Shown here piece by piece: positions 764-14,812 of a DNA stretch of 64,000 bases. Numbering within the stretch: position 1 is the first letter of the stretch; each line of letters opens with the position of its first letter. The notes beneath the pieces are model-generated. The model did not search any database, had not been told where the DNA came from, and saw only the letters and a program-made list of their open reading frames with translations. This DNA comes from a virus: positions 96,001 to 160,000 of the IMG/VR virus record IMGVR_UViG_3300031420_000003. One strand, 5' to 3'. Both the position numbers and the translations under genes were made by a program.

Positions 764-3700
764 ATGGCGACGGAAACCCCGGCCCAGTTTGACGGTACGT
801 TGAAAGTCTCGACGTTCCCCAACCGTTTCAACACGGTTATTCCGCCGGAAGGCCCTTTCTACCGCACCGGGCTGGTTATCACCGATTTAAATGATGTCCC
901 GCTTATCGAGGGCATGGACTATTACCTCGGCTACTATTACAAAGAAGCCGCTGAGGCATTCCAAGCCGCTGTGTTCGGCGGGATAATGTTGCTGAACCAC
1001 GACGCCATTAAATACAGCATTTACGCTGTGGGGCGTGACTACCGTGTGCCACAGAGCGAAATCGGTAAGTGGCTGGTCAGCAGCGACATGAAAGACCCCC
1101 GTAACGAAGACTGGTCTGCGTTGATGCGCTTTGCGCCAACCATTCCGGCCATCGACCCCCCGCAAGATTTGGACGAAGCCATTGCGCGTGACGATATCGT
1201 TGCCGCCCTGAATGACATTCGTCTGGGTTTGATTAAGCGGGCAGGGGACATGGACGCCGCTTACGGTGACGTCACTGACCTTATCTACCAAACCGGTAAG
1301 AAAGTGTTTGATGACGGGATGTATCAGCACCACCTGCTGAAATCCCAAGGGCACTCGTACACCGCAGAAGACATTGGGGCCTTAAAGGTCACAGACAAAG
1401 CAGTGGATGCCACCCGGGCCTTTGGTCGCACCATCGACCAGCTTGTCACGTTAATGTCGACCACTGGCTTTCAGCAAAAGCACCTTGATTTGCTGATGCG
1501 TAACGACACGGCGTTTAACAACGTCTTTGGTCGTTTGCGTGTGCTGAACAACAACGTCCTGACCTACACCACGGCGAACAGTGACCACGTTGTCACGTTC
1601 AAAGGCCCGAACGTGTTGGTCTCCACCAAAAAGACCATGCGCTTTACAGCGGATTCCGGTAATGCCAATCCGGGACTGGCGGTTGAGATGTCAGCGGGCC
1701 TGAATACCCTGATGGTGCACTCCGGGCCGAACGCACTGGCACCGGTGTTCAACGGGGTGTATCTGATTACCCCGGACATGGTGGAATTGTACCTGCACGA
1801 GGTGAAACTCAAAGCCGCGAATGCGTACATGTCCTCCACCGAAACCGTTAAGGTCTACGGGTCAGGCAAGTCCTACGCGCCGTTCCGTCTGGAAGCCAAC
1901 CTGCCTGAAGCCGCCGTGGGTGTACGGGGCCTGATCAAGGTGACCTCCAACCGCACCACGCTCAGCGAAGGGTACGCTATCTCTCAGGCCGGGATTACCG
2001 CTATGCGGGATTTGCTGGGCAACTACGTGGATGACGCCTACACCATCAACGGCAAGGGCTTTGATGCTACCCAGACGCTGACATTAACTGCAACGGACGT
2101 GGGTGTTGATAAGATGCAGAACACTGCACCTGTCGACAAGCCCGTGACCAAAGCGTTGACCTCGGCGGTGGCGAACAAGTCCCTCACCAACCACACGCAC
2201 ACCTTGGCAGATGTGACCGATGTACCGTACGCCAGTTCCTCAGCCGCGGGTCTGGTGCTGCTGTGGGACATTATCGATGCGAGTACCGATCGGGTGGTGA
2301 CGGCACGTCAAGGTTACCTGTTTGAAAAGGCCTTGGCGGATTTAGAAAGCAAAGCCAACGGTTTGATTCCGGCGTGGGCAGTGATTGGGGCGTCGTACGG
2401 TAACTTAGGATTCCTGCCTATCCCTGCGTTGGGTAACTACGAAGGGTACGGCAAGAACAACAGCTACTACTACGGGGCGATGCGCTTTGAGGGTGACAAG
2501 CTGTATATCCTGCGCAACGGCACCGATGGGCTAACCGACCAGCACATCTATTACGCCTACGGCACGCTCAACGAAGACAACACCCTGACCAACGTGCAGC
2601 AGACCACCCAACGCTATCAGCCCGCAGGGATGACCGCAAAATACCCGGGTGTGACACTGAAGGCCGTTGTGGTGCCCGGCAATGATTTCATTCTTTGTCT
2701 GGGCAGTGACAATGCGTATTACTTGGTGGACATGGCCGGCACGGCAGACCATAACCGCCACCTCAATGTGGTACGGGTCACGTTCCCGTCTATCACGGAT
2801 GTTGCAGGCGCGAGCACAGCACTGGTGCCGGTCGGTGAGACGGATGACATTGTGGTGTACGGCAGCAAGGTGTATCTGCTGCGTACGCGCTTGGCCAATG
2901 ACAGCTACCGGGTTGCACTGGCGTCGGTGTCATTGAATGCGTTTGGTGGTCAAGACATTGCCTTTGCCATGGAAACCCTGAACGGGATGAAGGGTGTAGC
3001 GGGGTCGTGGTTACTGCTGCGGGCAGAAGGGGCGTATGACCCGGACAATGCCAATACCGATCGGGTGGCCTATATGCCGGCTTCGGCTGCGGCGATTTGG
3101 ACGGTGGGCAAGAATCTGGTGCATGGCCCGGCGTGTAACCGTGCACTGGGGTTGCAGGATGAAGTGCTGCGAGTGGGCATGAACCCCACGCTGTGGCTCG
3201 CCAAAGCCACGGAGTCAGTCGGCTTTAGCAACTGGTACACATCGTACACTTTGGACTTTGACACACTCACCGTGGCACTGGAGCGCCCTGAGATATTCCC
3301 GTTACAGTTCTTGGACACCGGCCCGCAGTACAAAACCGGTACCGATCTTATCACGGCGAAATACCCAGCGAAGTGGACAGGGACACAGGCGAATGCCCGT
3401 GCGTACGTTGCGCACCAAGGCACGACGGTTGCCGTGTTGTCAGCCGAAGGTGACCGAGACACCCCGATCCGTGTGTCAACCATGTCAACGCCGGACGGCG
3501 ATGATTACTACGACTCACTGGCGGCGGATGTCTTGGGTGTACCTGCGGCAGGGTCAGTGGTGCGCCTCGACCAAGGACGTGGTTCGGTCTATGCCTCCGG
3601 GATGGCCTACCCGCTGTTCTTTGGCGGTGACTCGAAAGCCATCTGGTTAACCGGGGTGAAAGATGCCCTGGCAGTTGAGGTGGTGTACTCCACGGATACC

Positions 3701-5851
3701 GATTACGGCGTGCCGGGTTACGGTGGATTTGGCCCAACCAACAACCGTCGGGAAATCACCCCCGAGGCGTATGCGGCAATGTCGCAGTTGGCGATGGTCA
3801 AAGTCAGCAACACCGACAAAGGCACCCTGAACGGCTGCTTCTTCACGAAAGCGGAAACCGTGCAGTACAAGAACGTGGCCGGTAACCCGAACTTCACCGC
3901 AGATAAGCTGACCCTGAACGATACCGAGTGGGCGAAAGTCCGCAGTATCTTACTCGGTAATGCCCCGGCAGGTGCAGCCAACGGGTACGCCTCTGAACGT
4001 CTGATGGCCGCTGACCAAATCGGCAAGCTGTATGTCGGCCTGTGGGGCTTTGCTATCGGTACCCAGCAGCAGCTTTTCTTGGGACAAGCCACGGCACAGC
4101 GCTTAGTGAATGGTGTGAATAAAATCGACCATTACTACTTTGTGATGTACCCGAGTGTCTCCAACGGACAGCTCGCGTTCAGCTCTACCACGGTGCAGCT
4201 TCTGAGCTTCCACAACGACTTGGATTACAACATCGCCAACGTCGGGCTGGACTTCAGTTACAGTGGTAAGCCACGTCGCTTTGGTCAACCGCAGTTGATT
4301 TCCACGGACGGGCAGAAGTTTGCCCTGATGCTCCCAATGGTGCTGCGGATTGCACAGGTGGGTAATGCAGCCGGTCTTAACTACGCCGCGGTGTTAACCC
4401 TCTCGGGCAACCAGTGGGCGAAGACCTCAGCCACGGTGTACACCGACAACCCGACGTACCAACCGAATACGTGGGTGTGGGTGAAGGACCTGAATGCGAT
4501 GGTGCGGTCGTACTTCAAACTCGACCCGGTGTTCGCCTCGGGGGATGCCTACGCCATTGCGGACTTCATGGCCAAGCCGCTTGACACTTCGGTCACCAGT
4601 CAACCGGTGGTGTTGGCCGGTGTGAAAACCGCAGAAGGGTGGGTGCTGTATCTGACAGAGGACGAGCGGTTATTCATTAACTCGCAAGAATACCTGTTAG
4701 ACCAGTACAGCATCGACTTCTCCAGTGCGTTCAGTGACTACCGTAACCAGACCTTCTATTTCCACGCAGAAGTCTACCCAGACGAGGGGACGTTTAAAGC
4801 ACGGTACCGTGTCAGTACGACGCGTTACCCTGACAGCGACAACCTGCTTTATATTGGCTATGTCAAAACCGACAGCAGCCGAATCGTTGAGGAAAACATT
4901 CTCCCGGTGAAACGACTGGGTGATGTACGACAACTGATGGAACACGAAGGGGTGGGCTACAGTCACGGATCGAATGTGGGTCGTGAGCTGGCTGAGTCTC
5001 CACTGGGTCTGCTCGAACCTTTACCGATTGCTACCTCCGGTAATGGGTTTGTGGGGCAGTCTGCGTTGTCAGCAGCAATTGGCACGCTCTTGAGTCGCCC
5101 ACTGATTAACCGGTATGTGCCGGCACAACAGGCGTGGTACTCGGGTGCGGTCTTGCCTGAGCTGTTCTGGGCACCGGCTCGTGCGGTTGCAGTGACGTCT
5201 GCGGAGAACCCGGATGCGAACACGTTGGGGTTAATCTGGATTGACATCTATCAGCGGTCGATTCCGAACTTCGGCACCTTTGGCACCAAGTTCAAAGTGA
5301 CAACCACCGGCGGGACGTTACGCATTCGGTTTGCAGTGGATGACATGTGCCACATTTATATCGACGGTGTACGGGTTGCCTCGGGTATCACGTCAGGCGG
5401 GGCTAACCAGTTGGCTACCCAAGACTTCCCGGTGTCAAACGGACAGCACACGGTAGCGATTGAAGTCATTCAGGCAGGTACCGCAGGTGGCACCATCTGC
5501 CACATTGCGTTTATTGCCTACGACTGGAACGGCACCACTGCCCGTGAACTGACGCGCTCCAGCGGTACGTCGGTTGTGGCCTTCACCTCAGACCAAGGTA
5601 CAGCGTCCGGTAACTTGGGCGTGTTGGAGACCATTTCACACGTGTATGTTCCGGTCACCGACAACACTGCGGTTGTGACGGTGGTTGCGCCAGAAATCAG
5701 TTATGCCCCGCCATTTATTGAACGGGCTAACGGTTCTAACCGCGAAGTCGTTGTTGCCTCGAAGTTCTTTGGGCCAGATGGGAAGCTTGTTACGCTCGGT
5801 GAGGTAACGGTCAATCTTATGTTAATCCCAACGAGTAATTTGTCGTCTTAA
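764..5851 (+). CDS. Large tail fibre/baseplate protein (1695 aa)
   Basis: GGGAG RBS; fibre-type motifs HTHTLADV and ASSSAAGLVLL; C-terminal VDDMCHIYIDG..GQHTVAIEV resembles a PA14/galactose-binding-like domain. Confidence 0.75.
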   Translation: MATETPAQFDGTLKVSTFPNRFNTVIPPEGPFYRTGLVITDLNDVPLIEGMDYYLGYYYKEAAEAFQAAVFGGIMLLNHDAIKYSIYAVGRDYRVPQSEIGKWLVSSDMKDPRNEDWSALMRFAPTIPAIDPPQDLDEAIARDDIVAALNDIRLGLIKRAGDMDAAYGDVTDLIYQTGKKVFDDGMYQHHLLKSQGHSYTAEDIGALKVTDKAVDATRAFGRTIDQLVTLMSTTGFQQKHLDLLMRNDTAFNNVFGRLRVLNNNVLTYTTANSDHVVTFKGPNVLVSTKKTMRFTADSGNANPGLAVEMSAGLNTLMVHSGPNALAPVFNGVYLITPDMVELYLHEVKLKAANAYMSSTETVKVYGSGKSYAPFRLEANLPEAAVGVRGLIKVTSNRTTLSEGYAISQAGITAMRDLLGNYVDDAYTINGKGFDATQTLTLTATDVGVDKMQNTAPVDKPVTKALTSAVANKSLTNHTHTLADVTDVPYASSSAAGLVLLWDIIDASTDRVVTARQGYLFEKALADLESKANGLIPAWAVIGASYGNLGFLPIPALGNYEGYGKNNSYYYGAMRFEGDKLYILRNGTDGLTDQHIYYAYGTLNEDNTLTNVQQTTQRYQPAGMTAKYPGVTLKAVVVPGNDFILCLGSDNAYYLVDMAGTADHNRHLNVVRVTFPSITDVAGASTALVPVGETDDIVVYGSKVYLLRTRLANDSYRVALASVSLNAFGGQDIAFAMETLNGMKGVAGSWLLLRAEGAYDPDNANTDRVAYMPASAAAIWTVGKNLVHGPACNRALGLQDEVLRVGMNPTLWLAKATESVGFSNWYTSYTLDFDTLTVALERPEIFPLQFLDTGPQYKTGTDLITAKYPAKWTGTQANARAYVAHQGTTVAVLSAEGDRDTPIRVSTMSTPDGDDYYDSLAADVLGVPAAGSVVRLDQGRGSVYASGMAYPLFFGGDSKAIWLTGVKDALAVEVVYSTDTDYGVPGYGGFGPTNNRREITPEAYAAMSQLAMVKVSNTDKGTLNGCFFTKAETVQYKNVAGNPNFTADKLTLNDTEWAKVRSILLGNAPAGAANGYASERLMAADQIGKLYVGLWGFAIGTQQQLFLGQATAQRLVNGVNKIDHYYFVMYPSVSNGQLAFSSTTVQLLSFHNDLDYNIANVGLDFSYSGKPRRFGQPQLISTDGQKFALMLPMVLRIAQVGNAAGLNYAAVLTLSGNQWAKTSATVYTDNPTYQPNTWVWVKDLNAMVRSYFKLDPVFASGDAYAIADFMAKPLDTSVTSQPVVLAGVKTAEGWVLYLTEDERLFINSQEYLLDQYSIDFSSAFSDYRNQTFYFHAEVYPDEGTFKARYRVSTTRYPDSDNLLYIGYVKTDSSRIVEENILPVKRLGDVRQLMEHEGVGYSHGSNVGRELAESPLGLLEPLPIATSGNGFVGQSALSAAIGTLLSRPLINRYVPAQQAWYSGAVLPELFWAPARAVAVTSAENPDANTLGLIWIDIYQRSIPNFGTFGTKFKVTTTGGTLRIRFAVDDMCHIYIDGVRVASGITSGGANQLATQDFPVSNGQHTVAIEVIQAGTAGGTICHIAFIAYDWNGTTARELTRSSGTSVVAFTSDQGTASGNLGVLETISHVYVPVTDNTAVVTVVAPEISYAPPFIERANGSNREVVVASKFFGPDGKLVTLGEVTVNLMLIPTSNLSS

Positions 5852-5889: not shown

Positions 5890-7095
5890 TTGGAGATGAG
5901 TGATATTATTTTCCAGTATCCGCTTGACCTTAAAGGAACTCTGACATCGAACGCGGTTTCCATTCCCGTGGTCTTGGGTTCCGGTAAAGTCAACCGGTCT
6001 TTTGCTTTTCCGGCAGGTCCGTTCTACGCAGACAGTTTTCGACTGCGTGCAACGAACTCGCCCACCACGCAGTATAAACGTGGTACCGACTACGAACTGA
6101 TTTTCGCTCATCCGGCCTATGCGAAGCTCTCGGGCAACCAAGAAGTCGTGATGGGGGTTGTGGTCACCAACAGTAACATTCCAACAGACATCGTCGTAAC
6201 CGCACAGGTTGTCGGCGGGCCAATGTCGGCGAACGTGACTGCGATTGAAAACGCGATTGCGATTCTGGGCATCGATAACAAGAAAGTGAACTTCGCTGAC
6301 TTAATCGATTTCCCGGATACGCTCCCGGGTGCTCCGGCGTTTAAAGACGTTGGCGATATCTTTGGTTTTGAATACGTCATTACCCTGCTCTCTGGGATTC
6401 TTGATGCAATCGGTTCAGGCGATGCGGTACAGCTTGAGAAAATCAAAGACATCATCGGCGATATCAAAGATAACTTCTTGGATGCGCTGAATGCCCACAT
6501 CAACGCCACGGGTAACGTGCACAACCTCGATATCCACGATCTCGATGGGTTGACTGCAACCGAAATCCGTGCCCTGATTGCTGGCGTGCAATCGGCTATC
6601 GATGCAACCATCACCCAGATTGGCAACCTGCAGGCGGCTGATACGGCACTCGGTGGACGCATTGATGCTATCGTCTCGTCACTGACGACGTTCAACGACC
6701 AGCTCAACACGGTAGACCAAAACTACCAGAAGATGACGCTGATTGTGGCGAACCTCAATTCACTGGTGCTGCAGTTGCAGAAAACCGTGAACGAGCTCAC
6801 CGCGAAAACCGGCGACTTGCAAAGCCAGATTGATGACCTCAAATCAGGCCAAGGCGATGCACAGCAGCAGATTGACCAGCTGCGTGTTGACCTGTCTGCA
6901 CTGACGCGCCGTGTCACCACTGCGGAAGGTAACATTGCTAACGTTAACCAGACGCTGTCCAACCACTTGTCTGCGGCCGACCCACACACCCAGTATCTGC
7001 ACAAGCAGTACGGTGGCGTGATTCAGGCGAACGTGCATGTCAACGCCAACTTGACGACACGTGACGACGTTCAGGCGGATGCCGGTTCACGTTAA
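5890..7095 (+). CDS. Tail-fibre-associated protein with long coiled coil
   Basis: Heptad-rich C-terminal half; HLSAADPHTQY motif typical of phage tail fibre proteins; start may be ATG 5896. Confidence 0.65.
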   Translation: MEMSDIIFQYPLDLKGTLTSNAVSIPVVLGSGKVNRSFAFPAGPFYADSFRLRATNSPTTQYKRGTDYELIFAHPAYAKLSGNQEVVMGVVVTNSNIPTDIVVTAQVVGGPMSANVTAIENAIAILGIDNKKVNFADLIDFPDTLPGAPAFKDVGDIFGFEYVITLLSGILDAIGSGDAVQLEKIKDIIGDIKDNFLDALNAHINATGNVHNLDIHDLDGLTATEIRALIAGVQSAIDATITQIGNLQAADTALGGRIDAIVSSLTTFNDQLNTVDQNYQKMTLIVANLNSLVLQLQKTVNELTAKTGDLQSQIDDLKSGQGDAQQQIDQLRVDLSALTRRVTTAEGNIANVNQTLSNHLSAADPHTQYLHKQYGGVIQANVHVNANLTTRDDVQADAGSR

Positions 7096-7104
7096 TATAA
7101 TTAC

Positions 7105-7138
7105 ACACGGGCCTCGTCTATATGGCGAGTGCCCGTGT
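7105..7138 (+). terminator. Stem-loop (terminator, attenuator or processing site) before the Cys-rich operon
   Basis: ACACGGGC-CTCGTC..GGCGAG-T-GCCCGTGT followed by CTTTATT. Confidence 0.45.
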
Positions 7139-7158
7139 CTTATTAAAAAGGAAAGGTA

Positions 7159-7548
7159 ATGACGATATCACTTAAAGAGATAAGTGCCCGTCTTGACCGA
7201 GTCCAAGCAGCAACCGGTGGGTCTGTAGATGGGCAGGTGAACGCCAAAGTTCACAATGCTAACCTACTGGCTGGTCAGCCTGATACGTGGGCCCGTTGTA
7301 ACGGGTCGTGCAGTTGGACGTGTTCATCGGGGTGTAGTCATGGTTGCTCTAGCTGCTCAGGTAGCTGTAGCGGCGTGTGTACAGGTAACTGTTCGGGTTC
7401 GTGTTCTGGTGGTTGTGGGGGAGGATGTTCATCCTCGTGTTCTGGTGGGTGCTCTAGCGGGTGTTCGGGGACTTGCGGTGCAAGCTGTTCAAGTGGCTGT
7501 GCCGGTACCTGTAGCAGCAACTGCACATCAGGCTGCAGCAGCCCTTAG
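7159..7548 (+). CDS. Cxxx-repeat Cys-rich protein 1 (putative radical SAM substrate)
   Basis: AAGGAAAGG RBS; 46-aa leader then 21 Cys in Cxxx periodicity (one Cxx), core almost only C/S/G/T/N/A. Confidence 0.85.
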   Translation: MTISLKEISARLDRVQAATGGSVDGQVNAKVHNANLLAGQPDTWARCNGSCSWTCSSGCSHGCSSCSGSCSGVCTGNCSGSCSGGCGGGCSSSCSGGCSSGCSGTCGASCSSGCAGTCSSNCTSGCSSP

Positions 7549-7556
7549 GAGCAGAG

Positions 7557-7985
7557 ATGGCGATTTCATTAAAAACGGTGCAGGCTCGTGTTCAGAACAT
7601 TGAGAACACTGCACTTAAAACTGAAGCAGGCGTGCAAAACTACATTGCAGGCCGCACTACCAATAATGCTGATTTACTCAACGGCTTCACACCGGCGGCA
7701 CTGCACTGTAATGGCTCTTGTAGCTGGACGTGCGGTAACGGATGTTCCGGTGGCTGTACGGGTAACTGTTCGTCAGGATGTTCTTCATCATGTTCGGGCA
7801 ACTGCTCATCAAGCTGTACAGGCGGTTGTACTGGCAGCTGTGGCGGTAACTGCGGGGGCGGCTGCTCCGGTGGATGTTCTGGTACTTGCTCGGGTAACTG
7901 TTCAGGGAAATGTTCTGGCGGGTGCTCAGGAAGTTGTGGTGCGAGCTGTGGCGGAAGTTGTGGAGCAGGCTGTTCTGGACCGTAG
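7557..7985 (+). CDS. Cxxx-repeat Cys-rich protein 2 (putative radical SAM substrate)
   Basis: AGGAG RBS; 50-aa leader then 23 perfect Cxxx units starting CNGSCSWTC. Confidence 0.85.
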   Translation: MAISLKTVQARVQNIENTALKTEAGVQNYIAGRTTNNADLLNGFTPAALHCNGSCSWTCGNGCSGGCTGNCSSGCSSSCSGNCSSSCTGGCTGSCGGNCGGGCSGGCSGTCSGNCSGKCSGGCSGSCGASCGGSCGAGCSGP

Positions 7986-7994
7986 GAGTAGGCT

Positions 7995-8204
7995 ATGGCA
8001 GTAAGCTTGAAAGACATCGGTAACCGCGTCTCGAACGTCGAACGCTATATCACCACGGGCCAAGCGGTTGACTATATTGCCAACCGGGGAACGTGTAACA
8101 ACACCAACAACTTGGGTGGGATTCGTGCTGGCGCGTATAACTGCGGCGGAACCTGTAGCTGGAGTAGCTCAGGCGGGGCGAAATCAGTCACCTTCCCGAG
8201 TTAA
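7995..8204 (+). CDS. Short paralog of the Cxxx-repeat proteins
   Basis: AGGAG RBS; same leader (MAVSLK..R..N..NLGG) and CGGTCSW, but no long repeat. Confidence 0.8.
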   Translation: MAVSLKDIGNRVSNVERYITTGQAVDYIANRGTCNNTNNLGGIRAGAYNCGGTCSWSSSGGAKSVTFPS

Positions 8205-8216
8205 CAGGGGAACCTA

Positions 8217-9143
8217 ATGAAGAGTAACGATCATCTTGCGTACCGCACGAGCCTGAATCACCCGATTCACATCTCGTCACCGGACAGTGTCAATGCGCAC
8301 ATCAACGACGAGCTGCGTCTGATTGCCATGGACCAGTTCGAATGGCCTAAGCTTCGCGGTCGCAACTTTACGAACAAAGAGTACACCGTGATTGATGCCG
8401 CCACGGTGGGCAAGTTGAACGTGAAATCCATTCAGTTCAACCACGGCACAACCGGGCTTACTGGCAAGCTTGTCGATGACAAGTATTTTTTCACAGATTC
8501 GGTACTGAACTATAGCGCACCACTGGAACTGATGTTCGAGTCCTTTAAAGAACTCGGCATGCGTCCGGTCTGCGTACGTAGCTACAGCAGCGATTACTGC
8601 GGGAGCTGGTCACACCTGTTCAAACTGGTGGAAGCTGGCACTGGAAGCGTGGAGAAAGACCGTGAAATGTATCACCCGTTCTCTGGCCTTGAAGCCGCGA
8701 ATATCGACTGCTTGGCAGACTTACTCGCGTTTAGTTATAAGTTTGCATGGGATGCAGAAAAGCAAGAGTGGACCTACATCGCAGACCCGCACGCGCAAAC
8801 GCTCCGCATCCGTAAGCCTTGGATGGCCTATCTCTGTCAGACTGAGTTTGGCGCAGTACCAAACTCCACGGCGGACGATCGCAAACTGATTCGCTTCCTA
8901 CTCCAGTCGCAGCTGTCTGAGTTCACCAAAGAACAGCAGCAGGCACTGGAACCGTTTATTTCGTCCCCGGTTGAACTGGACGACCTTATCCGCATGGGTG
9001 AGCGTCAATCCGTTCTTAACGCACTGTACGATGCGTATCGCTCGCCACGCCTGTTAAAGGCGGGTGAAGATGTACGAGACACTGACCCACTGTTCTCCTT
9101 CCAACGCCGCATGTACGGAATGACGGATGAGAACGGTAAGTAA
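8217..9143 (+). CDS. Hypothetical protein of the radical SAM/Cxxx operon
   Basis: 308-aa ORF, RBS GGGG, overlaps start of next gene; no family recognised. Confidence 0.7.
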   Translation: MKSNDHLAYRTSLNHPIHISSPDSVNAHINDELRLIAMDQFEWPKLRGRNFTNKEYTVIDAATVGKLNVKSIQFNHGTTGLTGKLVDDKYFFTDSVLNYSAPLELMFESFKELGMRPVCVRSYSSDYCGSWSHLFKLVEAGTGSVEKDREMYHPFSGLEAANIDCLADLLAFSYKFAWDAEKQEWTYIADPHAQTLRIRKPWMAYLCQTEFGAVPNSTADDRKLIRFLLQSQLSEFTKEQQQALEPFISSPVELDDLIRMGERQSVLNALYDAYRSPRLLKAGEDVRDTDPLFSFQRRMYGMTDENGK

Positions 9144-10011
9144 AGATGTTTACTCACCTGCAAAGACCCTTAACGTAGCATTGACGTCGAAGTGTAACCT
9201 CAATTGTTCGTTCTGTGCGGGTGAGATTCACATGGTCAAAGGGGATGTGTCTCGTAAAACCCATGAAGAGGCAATGATGGAGTTACTGAAAAAGAATCCC
9301 GGTGTGGATGAGATCATCTGGACGGGTGGTGAGCCGTTATTGGCTTATCGCAAACTCGTCGAGTCGGTCGAGACAATGCGTGCAGAACGTCCTTCTGCTA
9401 TCCATTATCTTTTCACAAACGGACGTAAGTTACGTTTAGAGCAAGTCGAATTTCTAAAGACCTTCCATCGCGTGGTCGTCTCTATCGACGGTTACGAAGA
9501 TGATGCCCGTGGTTTGATGGACTTTGCTCGCACTGGTGATACCGAAGCGTTTGAAGTCATGGCCCAGCTGGACAACGTCATTCTCTGGTCGGTCCTGACC
9601 CGTGAGAAAATCGGTGACATGCGCTGGCACGAAGGCATGATGAAAATGCAAGACGCGATTCATCATCTGGGCTTTATCGGCATGAACTACCTGTTCGATA
9701 ACCAGATGAAGAAAGTGTTGTCACCGGACCACGTACTGAACTTCGTGTACGGCTTTGAGCGTCTGCAAGACAACATGCGTCGTCTGAACCGCATTAACAA
9801 GCGCGACACGATCATCAAACTCGAGAAGTTCTTCGAAATGGATGCGTGTAACGTCTGCAGTGAAATCATCGTCAGTCAGCCGAATGGCGACCTGCAAGTT
9901 CCTGAGAACGTCGAGATGGTTGTCGACCGTGGCTGCAACAAGATTGCACTGGCCATTGGTGAGCACGCCTACCGCTACATCATGAACTGGCTTAATCCAA
10001 TTAAAAAATAA
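9127..10011 (+). CDS. Radical SAM enzyme (short C-terminal Cys region)
   Basis: CNLNCSFC (CxxxCxxC), TGGEPLL, TNG and SIDG motifs; C-terminal CNVC..C. Confidence 0.92.
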   Translation: MRTVSKDVYSPAKTLNVALTSKCNLNCSFCAGEIHMVKGDVSRKTHEEAMMELLKKNPGVDEIIWTGGEPLLAYRKLVESVETMRAERPSAIHYLFTNGRKLRLEQVEFLKTFHRVVVSIDGYEDDARGLMDFARTGDTEAFEVMAQLDNVILWSVLTREKIGDMRWHEGMMKMQDAIHHLGFIGMNYLFDNQMKKVLSPDHVLNFVYGFERLQDNMRRLNRINKRDTIIKLEKFFEMDACNVCSEIIVSQPNGDLQVPENVEMVVDRGCNKIALAIGEHAYRYIMNWLNPIKK

Positions 10012-10023
10012 GGGGAGATAGGG

Positions 10024-11421
10024 ATGGATGCAACCTACCAGATAGTCACCAACCTATCGTGTAACCTCGACTGTGAGTATTGTTACGAGCGTAAATATCC
10101 GCGTAATAACAAAGTCGCTGATGTCGTTGATTTTATTCACGCCTGCTTTAATCGTGACAAACACCGTTTCTATTCTAAAACACAAGGCATCGACGGTATC
10201 ATCATTGATATCATCGGCGGCGAACCGTTCATGCAGCCGAAGCTTTTGAAAGCTGCGTTTGAAACTGCCGAAGAACTGTGTAACCAGTACAATCTGCCCT
10301 ACGTGTTCTCTATCTCCACCAACGGGACGTTGTTTGACAAACCGCTGGCGCTGGAGATTCTGAACCGTTGGAAAGACAAACTGTCTATCGGTGTCTCCAT
10401 CGATGGTCTGCCTGAGACCCACGATAAGTACCGTATCTTTACCACGTCCCGTCAAGGGTCTTACCAAGCAGCGGTCGCCGGTTATAAGCTTCTGCAAGAA
10501 ATCGGCATTCGTGAGATTGGGGTGAAAGCCACCTTCACGAAAGACACGCTGATGCAGTATGGCGCTGGGATGAAGTCGTTGATTGACGTGACCGGGGGCG
10601 GTCGTCTGTACGGTAACGTTGTGTTCGAAGACGTGTTACCGCGCCAGATGGCACTCGAGATTGCCAACCAGTTTATCGAAGTGGCGGAGTATTTCATTGA
10701 GAAGGGTCTGCACTTAGACCAGAACTCTGAAATCGGTCACGTGCTGCCAGACGGCTTGAACGTTGACCAGCTGTGGAACCCGGACTGGCGTGAGAAGCTC
10801 ATCCATGATGACTCTGTGCGCTACGACCCACAACGTCTGCGTCCGCACTGCGGTACCACGGTGTACATGACCTGTCTTGGTTTCGACCGTAACATCTTCG
10901 GTTGTAACCGCTTCATGTCAACCGTGACCACCCGTCAGGCTATCGGTAAGCTTGAAGGGCAAACCATTGTTAACACCGATGGCGGCAAACTGCTGGCAGA
11001 AGTGCAGGAACAGTGGAAGTCGTATCCTGACCAATGTATCGGTTGTCCTGCGAAGCACCTGTGTGCCTCGTGCGTGGCCGCAGCGTACGAAAATGGCGAC
11101 GGTGAAGAAGACGCTCGTAAAGAGTATCACGGCGAACGTCGTCAGTGTGGTTGGACTACCGCGAAGCTCTTAGTGGCTCAGTGGTGGAAACAACGTTTCG
11201 GGTCGTACGAGTCGCAGTACGACAAGTCTGTTTGTAACTGTTATCAGTGCCAGCAGAAGCGCAACTACGCGGTGGAAGAACAACTCTCCCGTGAAGCTGC
11301 TGAACAGCCATTACACGTCACTGCCATCCGTGAGATGACCATGGCTGTGGAACAATCTGACCGCAAGGAACAATTTAAGAATGAAAAGCCTGCTGCTCCA
11401 GAATTTTACGAAGTACGATAG
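10024..11421 (+). CDS. Radical SAM/SPASM peptide maturase (Cxxx-repeat target type)
   Basis: CNLDCEYC, IGGEPF, STNGT, SIDG; SPASM-like HCG..MTC..GCNRF and CIGCPAKHLCASC..C; adjacent to Cxxx substrates. Confidence 0.92.
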   Translation: MDATYQIVTNLSCNLDCEYCYERKYPRNNKVADVVDFIHACFNRDKHRFYSKTQGIDGIIIDIIGGEPFMQPKLLKAAFETAEELCNQYNLPYVFSISTNGTLFDKPLALEILNRWKDKLSIGVSIDGLPETHDKYRIFTTSRQGSYQAAVAGYKLLQEIGIREIGVKATFTKDTLMQYGAGMKSLIDVTGGGRLYGNVVFEDVLPRQMALEIANQFIEVAEYFIEKGLHLDQNSEIGHVLPDGLNVDQLWNPDWREKLIHDDSVRYDPQRLRPHCGTTVYMTCLGFDRNIFGCNRFMSTVTTRQAIGKLEGQTIVNTDGGKLLAEVQEQWKSYPDQCIGCPAKHLCASCVAAAYENGDGEEDARKEYHGERRQCGWTTAKLLVAQWWKQRFGSYESQYDKSVCNCYQCQQKRNYAVEEQLSREAAEQPLHVTAIREMTMAVEQSDRKEQFKNEKPAAPEFYEVR

Positions 11422-11929
11422 TCGCAAAATCGAAGCGTTCTTACAGCACTACAAGCTGTTCAACATTCACGCTATCGTGCCAGCCGATGACTTTAATGAC
11501 CATTGGCTGCGTCTGATGAACCGCTTTGCGCTGAACGTTATCCTGCCGGTTGCGTGTGTGGAGAATGGCCACAACTCGGTTGCGGAAATTGAAAAGCGTA
11601 ATCCGGGCTTTGAAGCACGCATTTTAGCCGCCCCGGCGTCCAAGCTGACACTGCTGCGTGAATCGACGCAAGAGCGTGGCTCGGATTCTCTGGTGGCCCT
11701 GTGCTTGTCCTTCCCGGATGTGCCGGTGTGGATGGTGCGTAACCCTGAAGGCGCGTGTCATTACTTTGATGACATGATGTTCATGCAGGCGTTCCAAGAA
11801 AATGATCAGGTGTTGCCAAACCTCGTCTACCGTCTGGATCTTCGTATTGACTTTGAACTCATGTCCTATGACATGTTGACCAAAGTTGGATTCGTAGGAG
11901 AGAAAGAATGCTTAGTGCTGACGAGATAA
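11381..11929 (+). CDS. Hypothetical protein of the radical SAM/Cxxx operon
   Basis: 182-aa ORF with AAGGA RBS, overlapping both neighbours. Confidence 0.65.
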   Translation: MKSLLLQNFTKYDSRKIEAFLQHYKLFNIHAIVPADDFNDHWLRLMNRFALNVILPVACVENGHNSVAEIEKRNPGFEARILAAPASKLTLLRESTQERGSDSLVALCLSFPDVPVWMVRNPEGACHYFDDMMFMQAFQENDQVLPNLVYRLDLRIDFELMSYDMLTKVGFVGEKECLVLTR

Positions 11930-12549
11930 AAGCTCGGTTTGAAAATGGCGATGGGCAGATTGACCGCACGGGGTTATACTTTGACCCCAATGGCGATGTC
12001 ACGCTGGCCAAGCGTCTACACTACGCACTCTTAGAGGGACTCAGTGAGAAAGATGCACTGCGTCAGTTGCAAGAGCAGGGTCAAACCCAGTTCGAAGCGA
12101 ACTACACCTTACGCCAGACCAAAACGTTTATCAAAGACGTGTTGGGGATTCAGGTGAAGGATTACCTCAAAGAGCTGCAATCGACCAAAGCGTATTGCTA
12201 CACGTTGCTGGCCCAGAAGTTAAAGGCGACCAACGAGGCGTACGCGGCGGCTGTGACCGCAGACATTGCGTATAAAGACCACACCTTCCAGACCGGTGGC
12301 GAGACCCTGACCACACTGGCCGGCTTCGTGCAAACGAACACCGTGCCGGAGTATTGGGTGACGGCCGATAACCTCGCACTGGAAGAGTGGGATGCGAAAG
12401 ACACCGAGCAGCTCTACGCGCTTATCGTTGCTCGCAATGCGCAGCTGCACATTCAGTTGACCGCGTACAAAACCCGTATCCGTGCGTTTGCGGAGCAGGG
12501 AGATTACGCCTCGCTCGATGCGGCGGAGTTTAATCCGTCGGTAGAATAA
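11908..12549 (+). CDS. DUF4376-like tail-fibre-associated protein
   Basis: C-terminal IAYKDHTFQT..YWVTADN..LY..IVARNAQLH..YKTRI pattern resembles DUF4376; AGGAG RBS. Confidence 0.6.
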   Translation: MLSADEIKARFENGDGQIDRTGLYFDPNGDVTLAKRLHYALLEGLSEKDALRQLQEQGQTQFEANYTLRQTKTFIKDVLGIQVKDYLKELQSTKAYCYTLLAQKLKATNEAYAAAVTADIAYKDHTFQTGGETLTTLAGFVQTNTVPEYWVTADNLALEEWDAKDTEQLYALIVARNAQLHIQLTAYKTRIRAFAEQGDYASLDAAEFNPSVE

Positions 12550-12553
12550 CTGT

Positions 12554-12584
12554 GGTGCCCTTCGGGGCACCCTTTCTTCTTTTT
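12554..12584 (+). terminator. Rho-independent terminator ending the tail/radical SAM operon
   Basis: GGTGCCC-TTCG-GGGCACC then T-rich tract. Confidence 0.85.
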
Positions 12585-12645
12585 ATTTGCGGTTTGTTAT
12601 GACCTTTCGCGCAATGCGAATCACAAAGAGAAAGAGGAAAGAGTA

Positions 12646-13240: not shown

Positions 13241-13354
13241 ATGCAAAAGACCGAAGCTGCTGTACAAGAAAAACCTGCGGTAATTCAACAAGGATTGGGC
13301 GCAGTCGCTTTGGTGTTATTCATCAGCCGTTTGTTCGGTAAGGTGAAACAATGA
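13241..13354 (+). CDS. 37-aa putative membrane peptide (not in ORF track)
   Basis: GGGAG RBS; MQKTEAAVQEKPAVIQQGLGAVALVLFISRLFGKVKQ; ATGA overlap with next gene. Confidence 0.55.
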   Translation: MQKTEAAVQEKPAVIQQGLGAVALVLFISRLFGKVKQ

Positions 13355-14037
13355 GCCCGATGGATTTCACTTATAAAGTCTTGGAGGGGAAATGGTTTAT
13401 CCTGACGCAGGATTTCCACTACCCGTTTACGCTACGCACAATCTACCGTAATGCACCGGGTTTGGACCGGATGGTTTCACTCACCGGTATCTTACCTGAT
13501 GCTCTGTTCTACATCACGGTACCCCGCGGCTTTGTCACCGATTTGGCCAGCATCCCTGAGATGTTGCAGTCGGTACTCAAGCCGAATGGTCCGTGGGCAT
13601 TAGCGGCGTGTTTGCATGACTTACTGTACCAGAAGTGTCCGTCGGATGCGGTCTACCCAGACACTCCGGCCGGACACCTCAGTGGGGCAGTGGACAAAGA
13701 CTTCGCAGACTTGATGTTCCTGCGCACGATGGAAGCCACCGGGGTCAGTGATGCCCTCGCCCGTTCGTTCTACGATGCCGTCCATCTCTTTGGGCAGTCT
13801 GCGTACAACGATGACAACTCCGATTGCCACTACACCGAGTTCAAAGAGTCCACGGTGGAGTATGCGCGTAACTACCTTTTCTTCCGCGAGTTCATTGAAC
13901 CTGCGGTACCGATTGGGGAGCGACACGCACTGGAATCCGGCGAAGTCAGCAACGTGAAGTACCGTAACATCAAACGGGCCTTTTTAACCGACCCAGAAAT
14001 CGCTGTAGAAAACGATAATCTGGAATCGGTCGCGTAG
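13351..14037 (+). CDS. DUF1353 family protein
   Basis: ITVPRGFVTDLASIP, AACLHDLLY and ADLMF motifs. Confidence 0.8.
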   Translation: MSPMDFTYKVLEGKWFILTQDFHYPFTLRTIYRNAPGLDRMVSLTGILPDALFYITVPRGFVTDLASIPEMLQSVLKPNGPWALAACLHDLLYQKCPSDAVYPDTPAGHLSGAVDKDFADLMFLRTMEATGVSDALARSFYDAVHLFGQSAYNDDNSDCHYTEFKESTVEYARNYLFFREFIEPAVPIGERHALESGEVSNVKYRNIKRAFLTDPEIAVENDNLESVA

Positions 14038-14108
14038 TACGGTTTGTGGGCGACGTCGCTTAGGATGGCTTACAGGACGTCTCACGCAGGATGAAATAAA
14101 AAGAAGAG

Positions 14109-14135
14109 GTACCCCACTCCAAAAGAGTGGGGTAC
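14109..14135. terminator. Bidirectional terminator between convergent genes
   Basis: GTACCCCACTC-CAAAA-GAGTGGGGTAC flanked by A-rich and T-rich tracts. Confidence 0.8.
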
Positions 14136-14139
14136 TGTT

Positions 14140-14676
14140 TTATTTACTCGGGGCAGGCGTCACGACATCAGCAGGGGCCGACGCGGGTGCTTGCGCATCA
14201 TCAGATGGAGTAAGAGAAGAAGCAGGGGTTGCAGCAGCAGTAGCAGCGTCACCGGTACCTACCTGACAGCGGAAGAAGGTGGCTCCCGACCCATTACCGC
14301 TCATGTCAACATTTGAATACGAGTAGGTGGGCGGGGTCGTGTTCAGCCGGTAATAACGTACACCGTTAATCAGGTCTACGCTGCCATCGACTTTGCCGAG
14401 CAGGTCTTTATAAAGTTGCGGGGATTCCACCTTGCCATTCGGGAAGGTCGCAACCCAGTTACTGCCGTTATCGATAACCGTGACGGCGATAGGATAAAGT
14501 TTAACTTGGGCCGCATCAGGTCGCCAGTTGACAAACGTCTCCTGAGCACCGGTACAGGTGTAAGTTACAAAGTCAGTTGGGGCGACAGGCACCGTCGAGA
14601 ACTGGCCATTGGTTGTGGTAAGCGCGCAACCCCCTAACAACATTGCAACGCAGAATGCCGCAATAAGACGTAACAT
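14140..14676 (-). CDS. Putative outer-membrane lipoprotein
   Basis: Start MLRLIAAFCVAMLLGG-C (lipobox) with GAGG RBS; Ala/Pro-rich C-terminal tail. Confidence 0.65.
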   Translation of the reverse strand: MLRLIAAFCVAMLLGGCALTTTNGQFSTVPVAPTDFVTYTCTGAQETFVNWRPDAAQVKLYPIAVTVIDNGSNWVATFPNGKVESPQLYKDLLGKVDGSVDLINGVRYYRLNTTPPTYSYSNVDMSGNGSGATFFRCQVGTGDAATAAATPASSLTPSDDAQAPASAPADVVTPAPSK

Positions 14677-14812
14677 GAGTCTATCCTCTGGTGAACTTTT
14701 CAATTATTTTTTGCCCGGGAAATACGGGTCATACTATAGTGGGCCTTGTGTTATTTTGACCCACTGGGCTTTTTTATGACAACCGTTGTCAACTTTATAA
14801 AAGGGAAAAGAG

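Follow-up and report, generated by a model that had tools for sequence, protein, structure and literature searches.

Why would a phage place genes for cysteine-rich repeat proteins and two radical S-adenosylmethionine (SAM) enzymes between its tail fibre genes and its lysin gene? The question is raised by a cassette in a virus genome, the IMG/VR record IMGVR_UViG_3300031420_000003, which is 248,416 bp long with direct terminal repeats. The window analyzed here is a stretch of 64,000 nucleotides covering positions 96,001 to 160,000 of that record, and its DNA is about 91% identical to that of the Erwinia phages Wellington and Kwan (genus Wellingtonvirus). In a program-made list of open reading frames (ORFs), eight + strand ORFs fill positions 7159-12549 of the window. 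They encode two proteins in which cysteine (Cys) recurs at every fourth position (A and B), a small relative of these (C), a 308-residue protein (U308), two radical SAM enzymes (rSAM2 and rSAM1), a 182-residue protein (U182) and a DUF4376 protein. On balance, we favor the view that the product of this cassette is a component of the tail fibre or baseplate that is cross-linked after translation. A virion appendage is favored over a secreted peptide because, in other phages, the Cys tract is fused to proteins encoded at the position of the fibre genes.

Cysteine-tract proteins and radical SAM enzymes of the cassette

Protein A (7159..7548; 129 amino acids, 21 Cys) consists of a 46-residue N-terminal region followed by an 83-residue tract with Cys at every fourth position, 28 Ser, 20 Gly and neither Asp nor Glu. 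Protein B (7557..7985; 142 amino acids, 23 Cys) has an N-terminal region of 50 residues and a tract of 92 residues of the same Cys-every-fourth kind. The spacing between Cys residues is four throughout both cores, apart from a single spacing of three in A, and the cores are made of Ser, Cys, Gly, Thr and Asn, with no Asp, Glu or Gln. Protein C (7995..8204; 69 amino acids, 3 Cys) shares the N-terminal region and a CxGxCSW motif with A and B and has no Cys-repeat tract. The first-pass annotation had described three paralogous proteins with a leader and a Cys repeat. This description fits A and B, and C for its N-terminal region, but since C lacks the tract there are two Cys-repeat proteins rather than three. 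Both A (24.9 bits) and B (25.2 bits) pass the cut-off of family TIGR04114 (20 bits), and the same NCBIfam search returned no TIGR04114 match for C. All three match phrog_6085 (A, E 8e-28; B, E 1e-34; C, E 1.3e-24 at profile positions 1-66). M1, R11, one Gly and the motif C-x-G-x-C-S are invariant across A, B and C, and the Trp that follows is nearly so. Across both strands of the whole 248-kb genome, runs of at least six closely spaced Cys were found only in A and B, so the tracts exceed what chance would give.

Because every reading frame of the Cys tracts is open, the frame was checked by the pattern of substitutions. Between the A core of the window and that of a related contig (L009), differences fall 4/2/32 on codon positions 1/2/3. 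Synonymous and non-synonymous codon changes number 27/5 in the Cys frame and 0/32 and 2/31 in the other two frames. The B core and two further comparisons gave the same pattern, and by this measure the Cys frame is the coding frame of the tracts. We then compared the ORFs with the deposited records of seven named phages (L001, L002, L003, L005, L006, L007 and L008). The A-type gene is absent, or called in another frame or strand, in all seven; B is called in the right frame in two (Wellington and ChrisDB), and C in six, the missing one being SPN3US. The SPN3US record has a single coding sequence at this place, SPN3US_0166, which reads B in another frame. Proteomic searches could therefore not have detected A. 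The Cys genes thus expose a systematic annotation gap in public phage records.

The two enzymes, rSAM2 (9127..10011; 294 amino acids) and rSAM1 (10024..11421; 465 amino acids), both pass the radical SAM family PF04055 (55 and 45.2 bits, respectively; cut-off 29.5 bits) and keep the CX3CX2C motif. Both begin directly at this cluster motif, at residue 23 in rSAM2 and residue 13 in rSAM1, and they are paralogues (hhalign probability of 95% over the core). With a mean column identity of 77%, rSAM1 is the most conserved gene of the cassette. Its top NCBIfam family is TIGR04115 (113.7 bits, profile positions 7-341 of 359), followed by PapB NF047865 (102.3 bits in a near full-length alignment), and its closest solved relative by sequence is CteB (E 7.5e-8). 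On TIGR04463, the CrpC family, it reaches 51.5 bits, under the cut-off of 525 bits. For rSAM2, the closest solved relative is SkfB (E 1.7e-5), and weak NCBIfam matches were obtained to the epimerase YydG (31.4 bits) and the cyclophane-forming YhhB (35.8 bits). No cassette protein matched TIGR04119 (CXXX_matur) at E<=0.1.

Eleven orthologues of rSAM1 share the invariant residues C13/C17/C20, C276/C284/C294, C338-x2-C341-x5-C347-x2-C350 and C375, and also keep C404/C406/C409 (CxCxxC); the C-terminal set forms a SPASM-like pattern. The invariant Cys of rSAM2 are C23/C27/C30 and, towards the C-terminus, C241, C244 and C270, suggesting a twitch-like enzyme with one auxiliary site. The matches of A and B to TIGR04114, of rSAM1 to TIGR04115 and PapB, and of the two enzymes to CteB and SkfB support the earlier proposal of a phage whose radical SAM enzymes modify Cys-rich proteins of its own.

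Conservation, fibre fusions and genomic setting

By tblastn, rSAM1 has matches in 75 phage records, and in 62 of these the match spans 80% or more of the query. Erwinia, Salmonella, Cronobacter, Escherichia and Proteus are among the hosts that the records name. An rSAM1 search of viral contigs returned 16, namely 12 from the SPN3US group and four with nothing more than distant radical SAM genes. All eight cassette genes are present, in unchanged order, in each of the 12 SPN3US-group contigs, so the synteny between radical SAM and Cys-repeat genes, whose lack the first-pass annotation had named as refuting its proposal, is kept in relatives. The A/B/C triad was found in all seven named phages examined, whose records carry five genus names. 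In the contigs examined, the Cys count stays at 21 in all A-type proteins and at 20 or 23 in those of B type, even at an identity of about 50%, although the spacing drifts between CxxxC and CxxC. Orthologues of C (68-81 amino acids, 2-4 Cys) are present in all 12 related contigs. In two contigs, a third radical SAM gene, a paralogue of rSAM2, lies between A and B (L015:3542-4453 and L020:3543-4454).

Beyond this group, a HMMER search of 1.84 billion representative proteins gave 43 relatives of rSAM1 at E<=1e-30. Ten of these were scored on NCBIfam; their best family was TIGR04115 or PapB at 123-195 bits, none over the cut-off. Four single proteins of 634-686 amino acids (P0041, P0042, P0045 and L109:5131-7191) carry two CX3CX2C motifs each and are on this account natural fusions of an rSAM2-like and an rSAM1-like enzyme. 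Loci were then collected with an alignment of 32 relatives, and we kept 80 of at least 223 matching viral stretches together with 80 bacterial or archaeal genome loci; the genome contigs were scanned with one peptide pattern, and statements on genomes refer to the 80 loci kept. Among the matches listed, best-segment identity is 21-34% in bacterial and archaeal genome contigs and up to 44% in viral contigs.

In five viral contigs (L106, L107, L109, L110 and L112) the Cys tract forms the C-terminal end of a protein at fibre position. Three of the five fusion proteins match tail-fibre families: that of L106 matches PF12571, the N-terminal domain of tail-collar fibres (138.8 bits), with Baseplate J, DUF1353 and sheath genes in its flanks, and those of L109 and L110 match tail-fibre PHROGs (E 3e-32 and E 2e-40). 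The L107 and L112 proteins match phrog_6085 at their C-termini. An rSAM1-type gene lies directly 3' of the fusion in all five loci, and a phrog_8030 (U308-like) gene in four of them (L107, L109, L110 and L112). L106, L107 and L112 also carry an rSAM2-type gene; in L109 the rSAM2-type and rSAM1-type genes are joined into one. These fusions, with the enzymes directly downstream, support the suggestion in the first-pass annotation of a virion appendage, as opposed to a secreted peptide.

The pairing of enzyme and Cys tract is widespread among viruses. A same-strand ORF with a run of at least 10 Cys, in a protein of any length, accompanies the enzyme in 75 of the 80 kept viral loci versus 9 of the 80 kept genome loci. 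With runs of at least six Cys and proteins of more than 400 amino acids excluded, the counts are 55/80 and 12/80, respectively. Where flanks were complete (48 viral loci), a median of 541 nt separates the Cys ORF from the enzyme match. More distant viral enzymes (L121, L130, L132 and L174) are true TIGR04115 members (433-634 bits), and in all four loci sampled from this distant group the enzyme and the Cys protein adjoin tail, baseplate or fibre PHROGs. Among L113-L185, giant Cys-tract proteins stand beside true TIGR04115 enzymes (e.g. L129:3759-5201, L180:3037-4431 and L174:4751-5539), with up to 95 Cys in 464-480 amino acids; many of them share a conserved N-terminal domain of about 110 amino acids that has no PHROG match.

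A tree of 163 sequences was built with FastTree (LG model) and rooted at the midpoint. Here the SPN3US group forms a single clade (support 0.997) and falls in an rSAM1 clade of 47 members (support 0.94) together with the 32 relatives and the enzymes of L107, L109, L110 and L112, and none of the 80 kept bacterial or archaeal genome loci is in this clade. Its sister has 78 members (62 viral, 16 genome loci) and holds the TIGR04115 members, so rSAM1 does not fall inside the clade of scored TIGR04115 members. The PapB locus, L037, lies outside both sister clades (125 members together).

Two ideas on the origin of the N-terminal regions were considered and rejected in their strong form. Homology between the A/B/C region and the N-terminal domain of about 110 amino acids in TIGR04115-type Cys proteins received an hhalign probability of 2% over 12 columns. 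A hidden Markov model (HMM) built from 46 of the A/B/C-type regions, as candidate fibre building blocks, had no match in the 248-kb genome beyond A, B and C; the structural protein encoded just upstream of A gave a non-significant E of 7.1. A weaker form of the second idea survives on sequence comparison. The phrog_6085 alignments to the fibre-fused forms start at profile positions 23-36, i.e., upstream of the tract, and a junction of the form NAD/AE-x-L-x-G ... YYRC-x-GC-x-W is common to L107, L112 and A/B/C.

In the window itself, the cassette follows two + strand genes for structural proteins. The first (764..5851) encodes a 1695-residue baseplate/fibre protein related to gp168 of phage SPN3US (blastp, 34% identity over 928 amino acids, E 1e-137); PMC5105663 classes SPN3US gp168 with the baseplate/fibre proteins and reports its detection in the tail by proteomics. 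The second (5890..7095) encodes a 401-residue virion structural protein related to SPN3US gp167 (phrog_2163 'virion structural protein', E 1.3e-99). It is 64% identical to the SPN3US ORF, which bears the GenBank name 'putative virion structural protein 20', and its C-terminal half is a coiled-coil. A GH108 lysin gene lies 3' of the cassette, and the cassette thus sits between tail fibre genes and lysin, as had been noted at first sight.

The eight genes are tightly coupled, at the coordinates first assigned to them. From A to the DUF4376 gene, the intergenic distances are, in order, 8, 9, 12, -17, 12, -41 and -22 nt, and most starts are preceded by purine-rich stretches. The last gene of the operon (11908..12549) was correctly recognized as DUF4376-like: it passes PF14301 with 28.7 bits over residues 102-200 (cut-off 25) and matches phrog_8169 (E 1e-81). 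It is followed on the + strand by an intrinsic-terminator-like hairpin with a 7-bp GC stem, a TTCG loop and a T-run (12554..12571), which is the UUCG terminator of the first-pass annotation. Neither a protease nor an exporter is found among the operon genes in Pfam, NCBIfam and PHROG searches, in line with the earlier remark that no exporter is present.

Some further features surround the cassette. The gp167-like gene and gene A are 63 nt apart, and an inverted repeat in this gap (7103-7139), with GC-rich arms of roughly 8-9 bp, could be an attenuator or an RNA processing site. Right behind the lysin gene lies a phrog_1158 'tail assembly chaperone' gene (13351-14037; 228 amino acids), and in L106 a 121-residue ORF that passes Pfam DUF1353 lies directly 3' of the radical SAM genes; a small gene of this kind may travel with the cassette. 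At 14108-14136, a 12-bp hairpin with T-runs on both strands, resembling a bidirectional terminator, separates the + strand block from a convergent minus-strand ORF of 187 amino acids (14140-14703) with a lipoprotein-like N-terminus.

Sequences from the environment also contain the cassette. The stretch 7100-12600 was found whole or nearly whole in many phyllosphere metagenome runs of 2019 (X1-X15), some of which are possibly the source of the record. A relative of the cassette, about 91% identical, is present in RNA-library contigs (seed metatranscriptomes) of two studies (X16 and X20; X19). The longest of these contigs, found in X16, has 4585 nt, covers 7952-12536 with 394 differing letters and ends just before the terminator. 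Such contigs do not show expression, because the libraries may contain DNA and contigs are no transcripts.

The two remaining proteins of the cassette have no Pfam or NCBIfam match. U308 (8217..9143) matches phrog_8030 (E 4e-134), and its relatives in the large protein collection (14 clusters) are all close ones. Its AF2 model (pLDDT 85, pTM 0.80) consists of an alpha/beta N-terminal domain and a helical C-terminal domain. For the whole model, Foldseek gave no PDB match at E<=1e-3 and there was no usable Atlas match; the best VIA match (Z 4.1) concerns the helical part only, and BFVD holds only the orthologue of phage Asesino (TM 0.90). A complex prediction of U308 with residues 1-62 of B scored 0.00, which is no verdict and counts neither way. 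Since U308 accompanies rSAM1 across unrelated phages, it is probably a substrate-handling helper.

U182 (11381..11929) matches phrog_7988, forms 18 clusters in the large protein collection and, in the loci compared, was found only in the SPN3US group. Its AF2 model (pLDDT 84, pTM 0.81) is a (beta/alpha)6 half-barrel. The top VIA rows are a PFL-activase fragment (Z 9.6), SuiB (8.8), viperin (8.2), QueE (8.2), NifB (8.1) and Cfr (8.0); radical SAM proteins, among them a methyltransferase, GDGT-MAS and Mmp10, make up nine of the 12 top rows (Z 7.6-9.6), although by the tool's own warning matches at Z 7-9.6 may reflect a common arrangement. U182 has no CX3CX2C motif, and its alignment with CteB begins at CteB chain residue 146, behind the cluster motif at about 106. 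The model thus looks like a cluster-less remnant of the radical SAM fold. Descent from a diverged copy of rSAM1 or rSAM2 was rejected (hhalign probability <1%), the likeness being confined to the predicted fold.

Possible products of the cassette

How could these genes work together? On the reading we favor, A and B would be produced late, together with the fibres, and their tracts of about 85-90 residues would be the substrates of both radical SAM enzymes. rSAM1 would be the conserved core enzyme, assisted by U308, and would most likely build sulfur-to-carbon (thioether) bridges from Cys to carbons of neighboring Ser, Gly, Thr or Asn residues, turning the tract into a rigid ladder. rSAM2 would add a further modification or work at another site, perhaps the CxGxCSW junction, which is kept in C. 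The finished proteins would then be mounted on the virion, presumably on the fibre or baseplate proteins of the gp167/gp168 type encoded upstream.

Several observations weigh against this reading. rSAM1 scores far under the cut-offs of TIGR04115 (350 bits) and PapB (340 bits), and the Pfam search lists no match to the SPASM family (PF13186) at E<=0.1. For SPASM the signs are mixed, since rSAM1 also aligns over nearly its full length with TIGR04115 and PapB, both of them SPASM families, and keeps the invariant C-terminal Cys described above. Of the other families named in the first-pass annotation, TIGR04114 is matched by A and B, the TIGR04115 cut-off is not reached, and TIGR04119 has no match. 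An RRE-type (PqqD-like, winged-helix) domain was not found in any cassette protein by family or fold searches, a negative that does not prove the absence of such a domain from U308, U182 or the enzymes. Asp and Glu are missing from the A and B cores; the acceptors of PapB-type chemistry are therefore absent and Cys-Asp links of that type impossible here. The C-X-X-Q/D motif noted for CrpA and CrpB in PMC13692751 does not fit cores free of Asp and Gln either.

Other points concern the virion. The Cys proteins of this phage stand alone, not fused to a fibre, and beyond A, B and C the HMM of their N-terminal regions finds nothing in the genome, so that a presumed attachment of A, B and C to the particle rests on analogy with the fused forms. 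The main text of PMC5105663 is silent on the products of SPN3US gp161-gp167. The Cys proteins would have escaped proteomic searches, because their genes are missing or mis-annotated in public records. The same source describes amber-mutant genetics and virion proteomics for SPN3US, and since the cassette is present in that phage, the system is directly testable.

A serious rival, possible although we hold it to be rather unlikely, is that the tracts are metal- or iron-sulfur-binding (metallothionein-like) modules of the fibres, or that the enzymes perform a radical SAM reaction other than thioether formation, such as epimerisation, cyclophane or Cys-Trp linkage, or Cys oxidation. Such chemistry would suit tracts in which the number of Cys is constant while CxxxC and CxxC spacing drifts and in which Asp and Glu acceptors are missing. 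The nearly invariant Trp of CxGxCSW and the weak rSAM2 matches to epimerase and cyclophane families point the same way, and metal binding was suggested for CrpA by the authors of PMC13692751. However, maturases that form thioethers are the top matches of both enzymes, among families as well as solved structures. Moreover, dedicated radical SAM enzymes would not be needed for metal binding by itself, yet enzyme and tract are paired in 75 of the 80 kept viral loci.

In our view, it is improbable that the role of the Cys proteins and enzymes ends with assembly, where they would serve the large fibres as a temporary scaffold or chaperone without becoming part of the mature particle. Genes for fibre assembly usually sit where this cassette sits, and DUF4376 and phrog_1158 ('tail assembly chaperone') genes are close by, but a tract fused to a fibre must enter the particle unless it is cleaved off. 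Least probable of all is a free, leader-cleaved peptide, ribosomally made and modified after translation (RiPP), released from A/B/C at lysis, e.g. an antimicrobial or signalling peptide: the leader-plus-core layout, the three small paralogous precursors, the TIGR04114 matches and the bacterial loci L031, L032 and L034, where small Cys peptides stand beside true TIGR04115+TIGR04119 fusion enzymes (TIGR04119 at 216-258 bits), speak for it, but the operon encodes no protease or exporter by family searches, the tract is joined to a fibre-position protein in each of five phage contigs, the cassette keeps its place within the late tail module, and the cores are 83-92 residues long.

Returning to a cross-linked appendage, we can extend it, tentatively and with rather low confidence in the picture as a whole, to a more general one. 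Phages of many lineages may build a 'cysteine ladder' at the fibre tip, stapled covalently by radical SAM enzymes and perhaps carrying metal. In the SPN3US group, A, B and C (the last without a tract) would form this tip as three individual small proteins assembling on the large fibres. Two reactions would be involved, one on the repeat tract and one on the CxGxCSW junction. The result would be a protease-proof tip for receptor binding or envelope piercing, affecting host range and particle stability.

Comparison with known systems

The thioether chemistry of radical SAM/SPASM enzymes is known from small antibiotic-like peptides and a few cellular proteins. If the cassette makes a cross-linked fibre or baseplate part, the same chemistry on a structural protein of a virus would be a new role for these enzymes, and a new way for phages to harden or tune their host-binding fibres. 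A literature search, which left about 1.7 million PMC articles uncovered, turned up no account of phage tails in which Cys-repeat proteins go together with radical SAM enzymes; in PMC6591296, a radical SAM ORF is merely listed.

The closest family definitions are those of the NCBIfam CXXX-repeat system. As in that system, A and B pass TIGR04114, TIGR04115 is the best family of rSAM1, and true TIGR04115 members also adjoin giant Cys-tract proteins in phage tail modules. The phage cassette differs in that rSAM1 scores 113.7 against a cut-off of 350 bits and belongs to a sister clade, in that TIGR04119 is missing, and in its addition of a second radical SAM enzyme, U308 and U182. Our literature search found no paper characterizing the TIGR04115 family, which is named once, in an unrelated paper.

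The enzyme PapB and its substrate PapA (freyrasin) resemble the phage system in that PapB is the second-best family of rSAM1 and a Cys motif is repeated within one substrate. The repeat of PapA is CX3D, whereas the A and B cores have no Asp; rSAM1 remains under the PapB cut-off, and the PapB locus branches outside the clades described above. The PapA product is, moreover, a small peptide and not a virion protein. CteB, the SCIFF maturase (PDB 5WGG/5WHY), and SkfB (PDB 6EFN) are the nearest solved sequences and, like each other, make thioethers from Cys in peptides. The alignment with them is confined to the radical SAM core, however, and the phage enzymes, with their cluster motif so close to the start, appear to have no N-terminal recognition domain.

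The nearest characterized system is CrpC/CrpA of Methanococcus voltae, described by Dieter et al. 2026 (PMC13692751). It is an archaeal, cellular system, CrpA has 17-residue repeats with a C-X-X-Q/D motif, and CrpC is described as carrying an RRE; rSAM1 is not a member of TIGR04463, and the word 'phage' does not occur in the text of that paper. CrpC, a SPASM radical SAM enzyme, installs thioether (ranthionine) links on CrpA, and thus acts, as we propose for the phage enzymes, on a Cys-rich repeat protein and not on a short peptide. CrpA and its paralogue CrpB are almost identical over their first 47 residues, an N-terminal region shared between paralogues much as it is among A, B and C.

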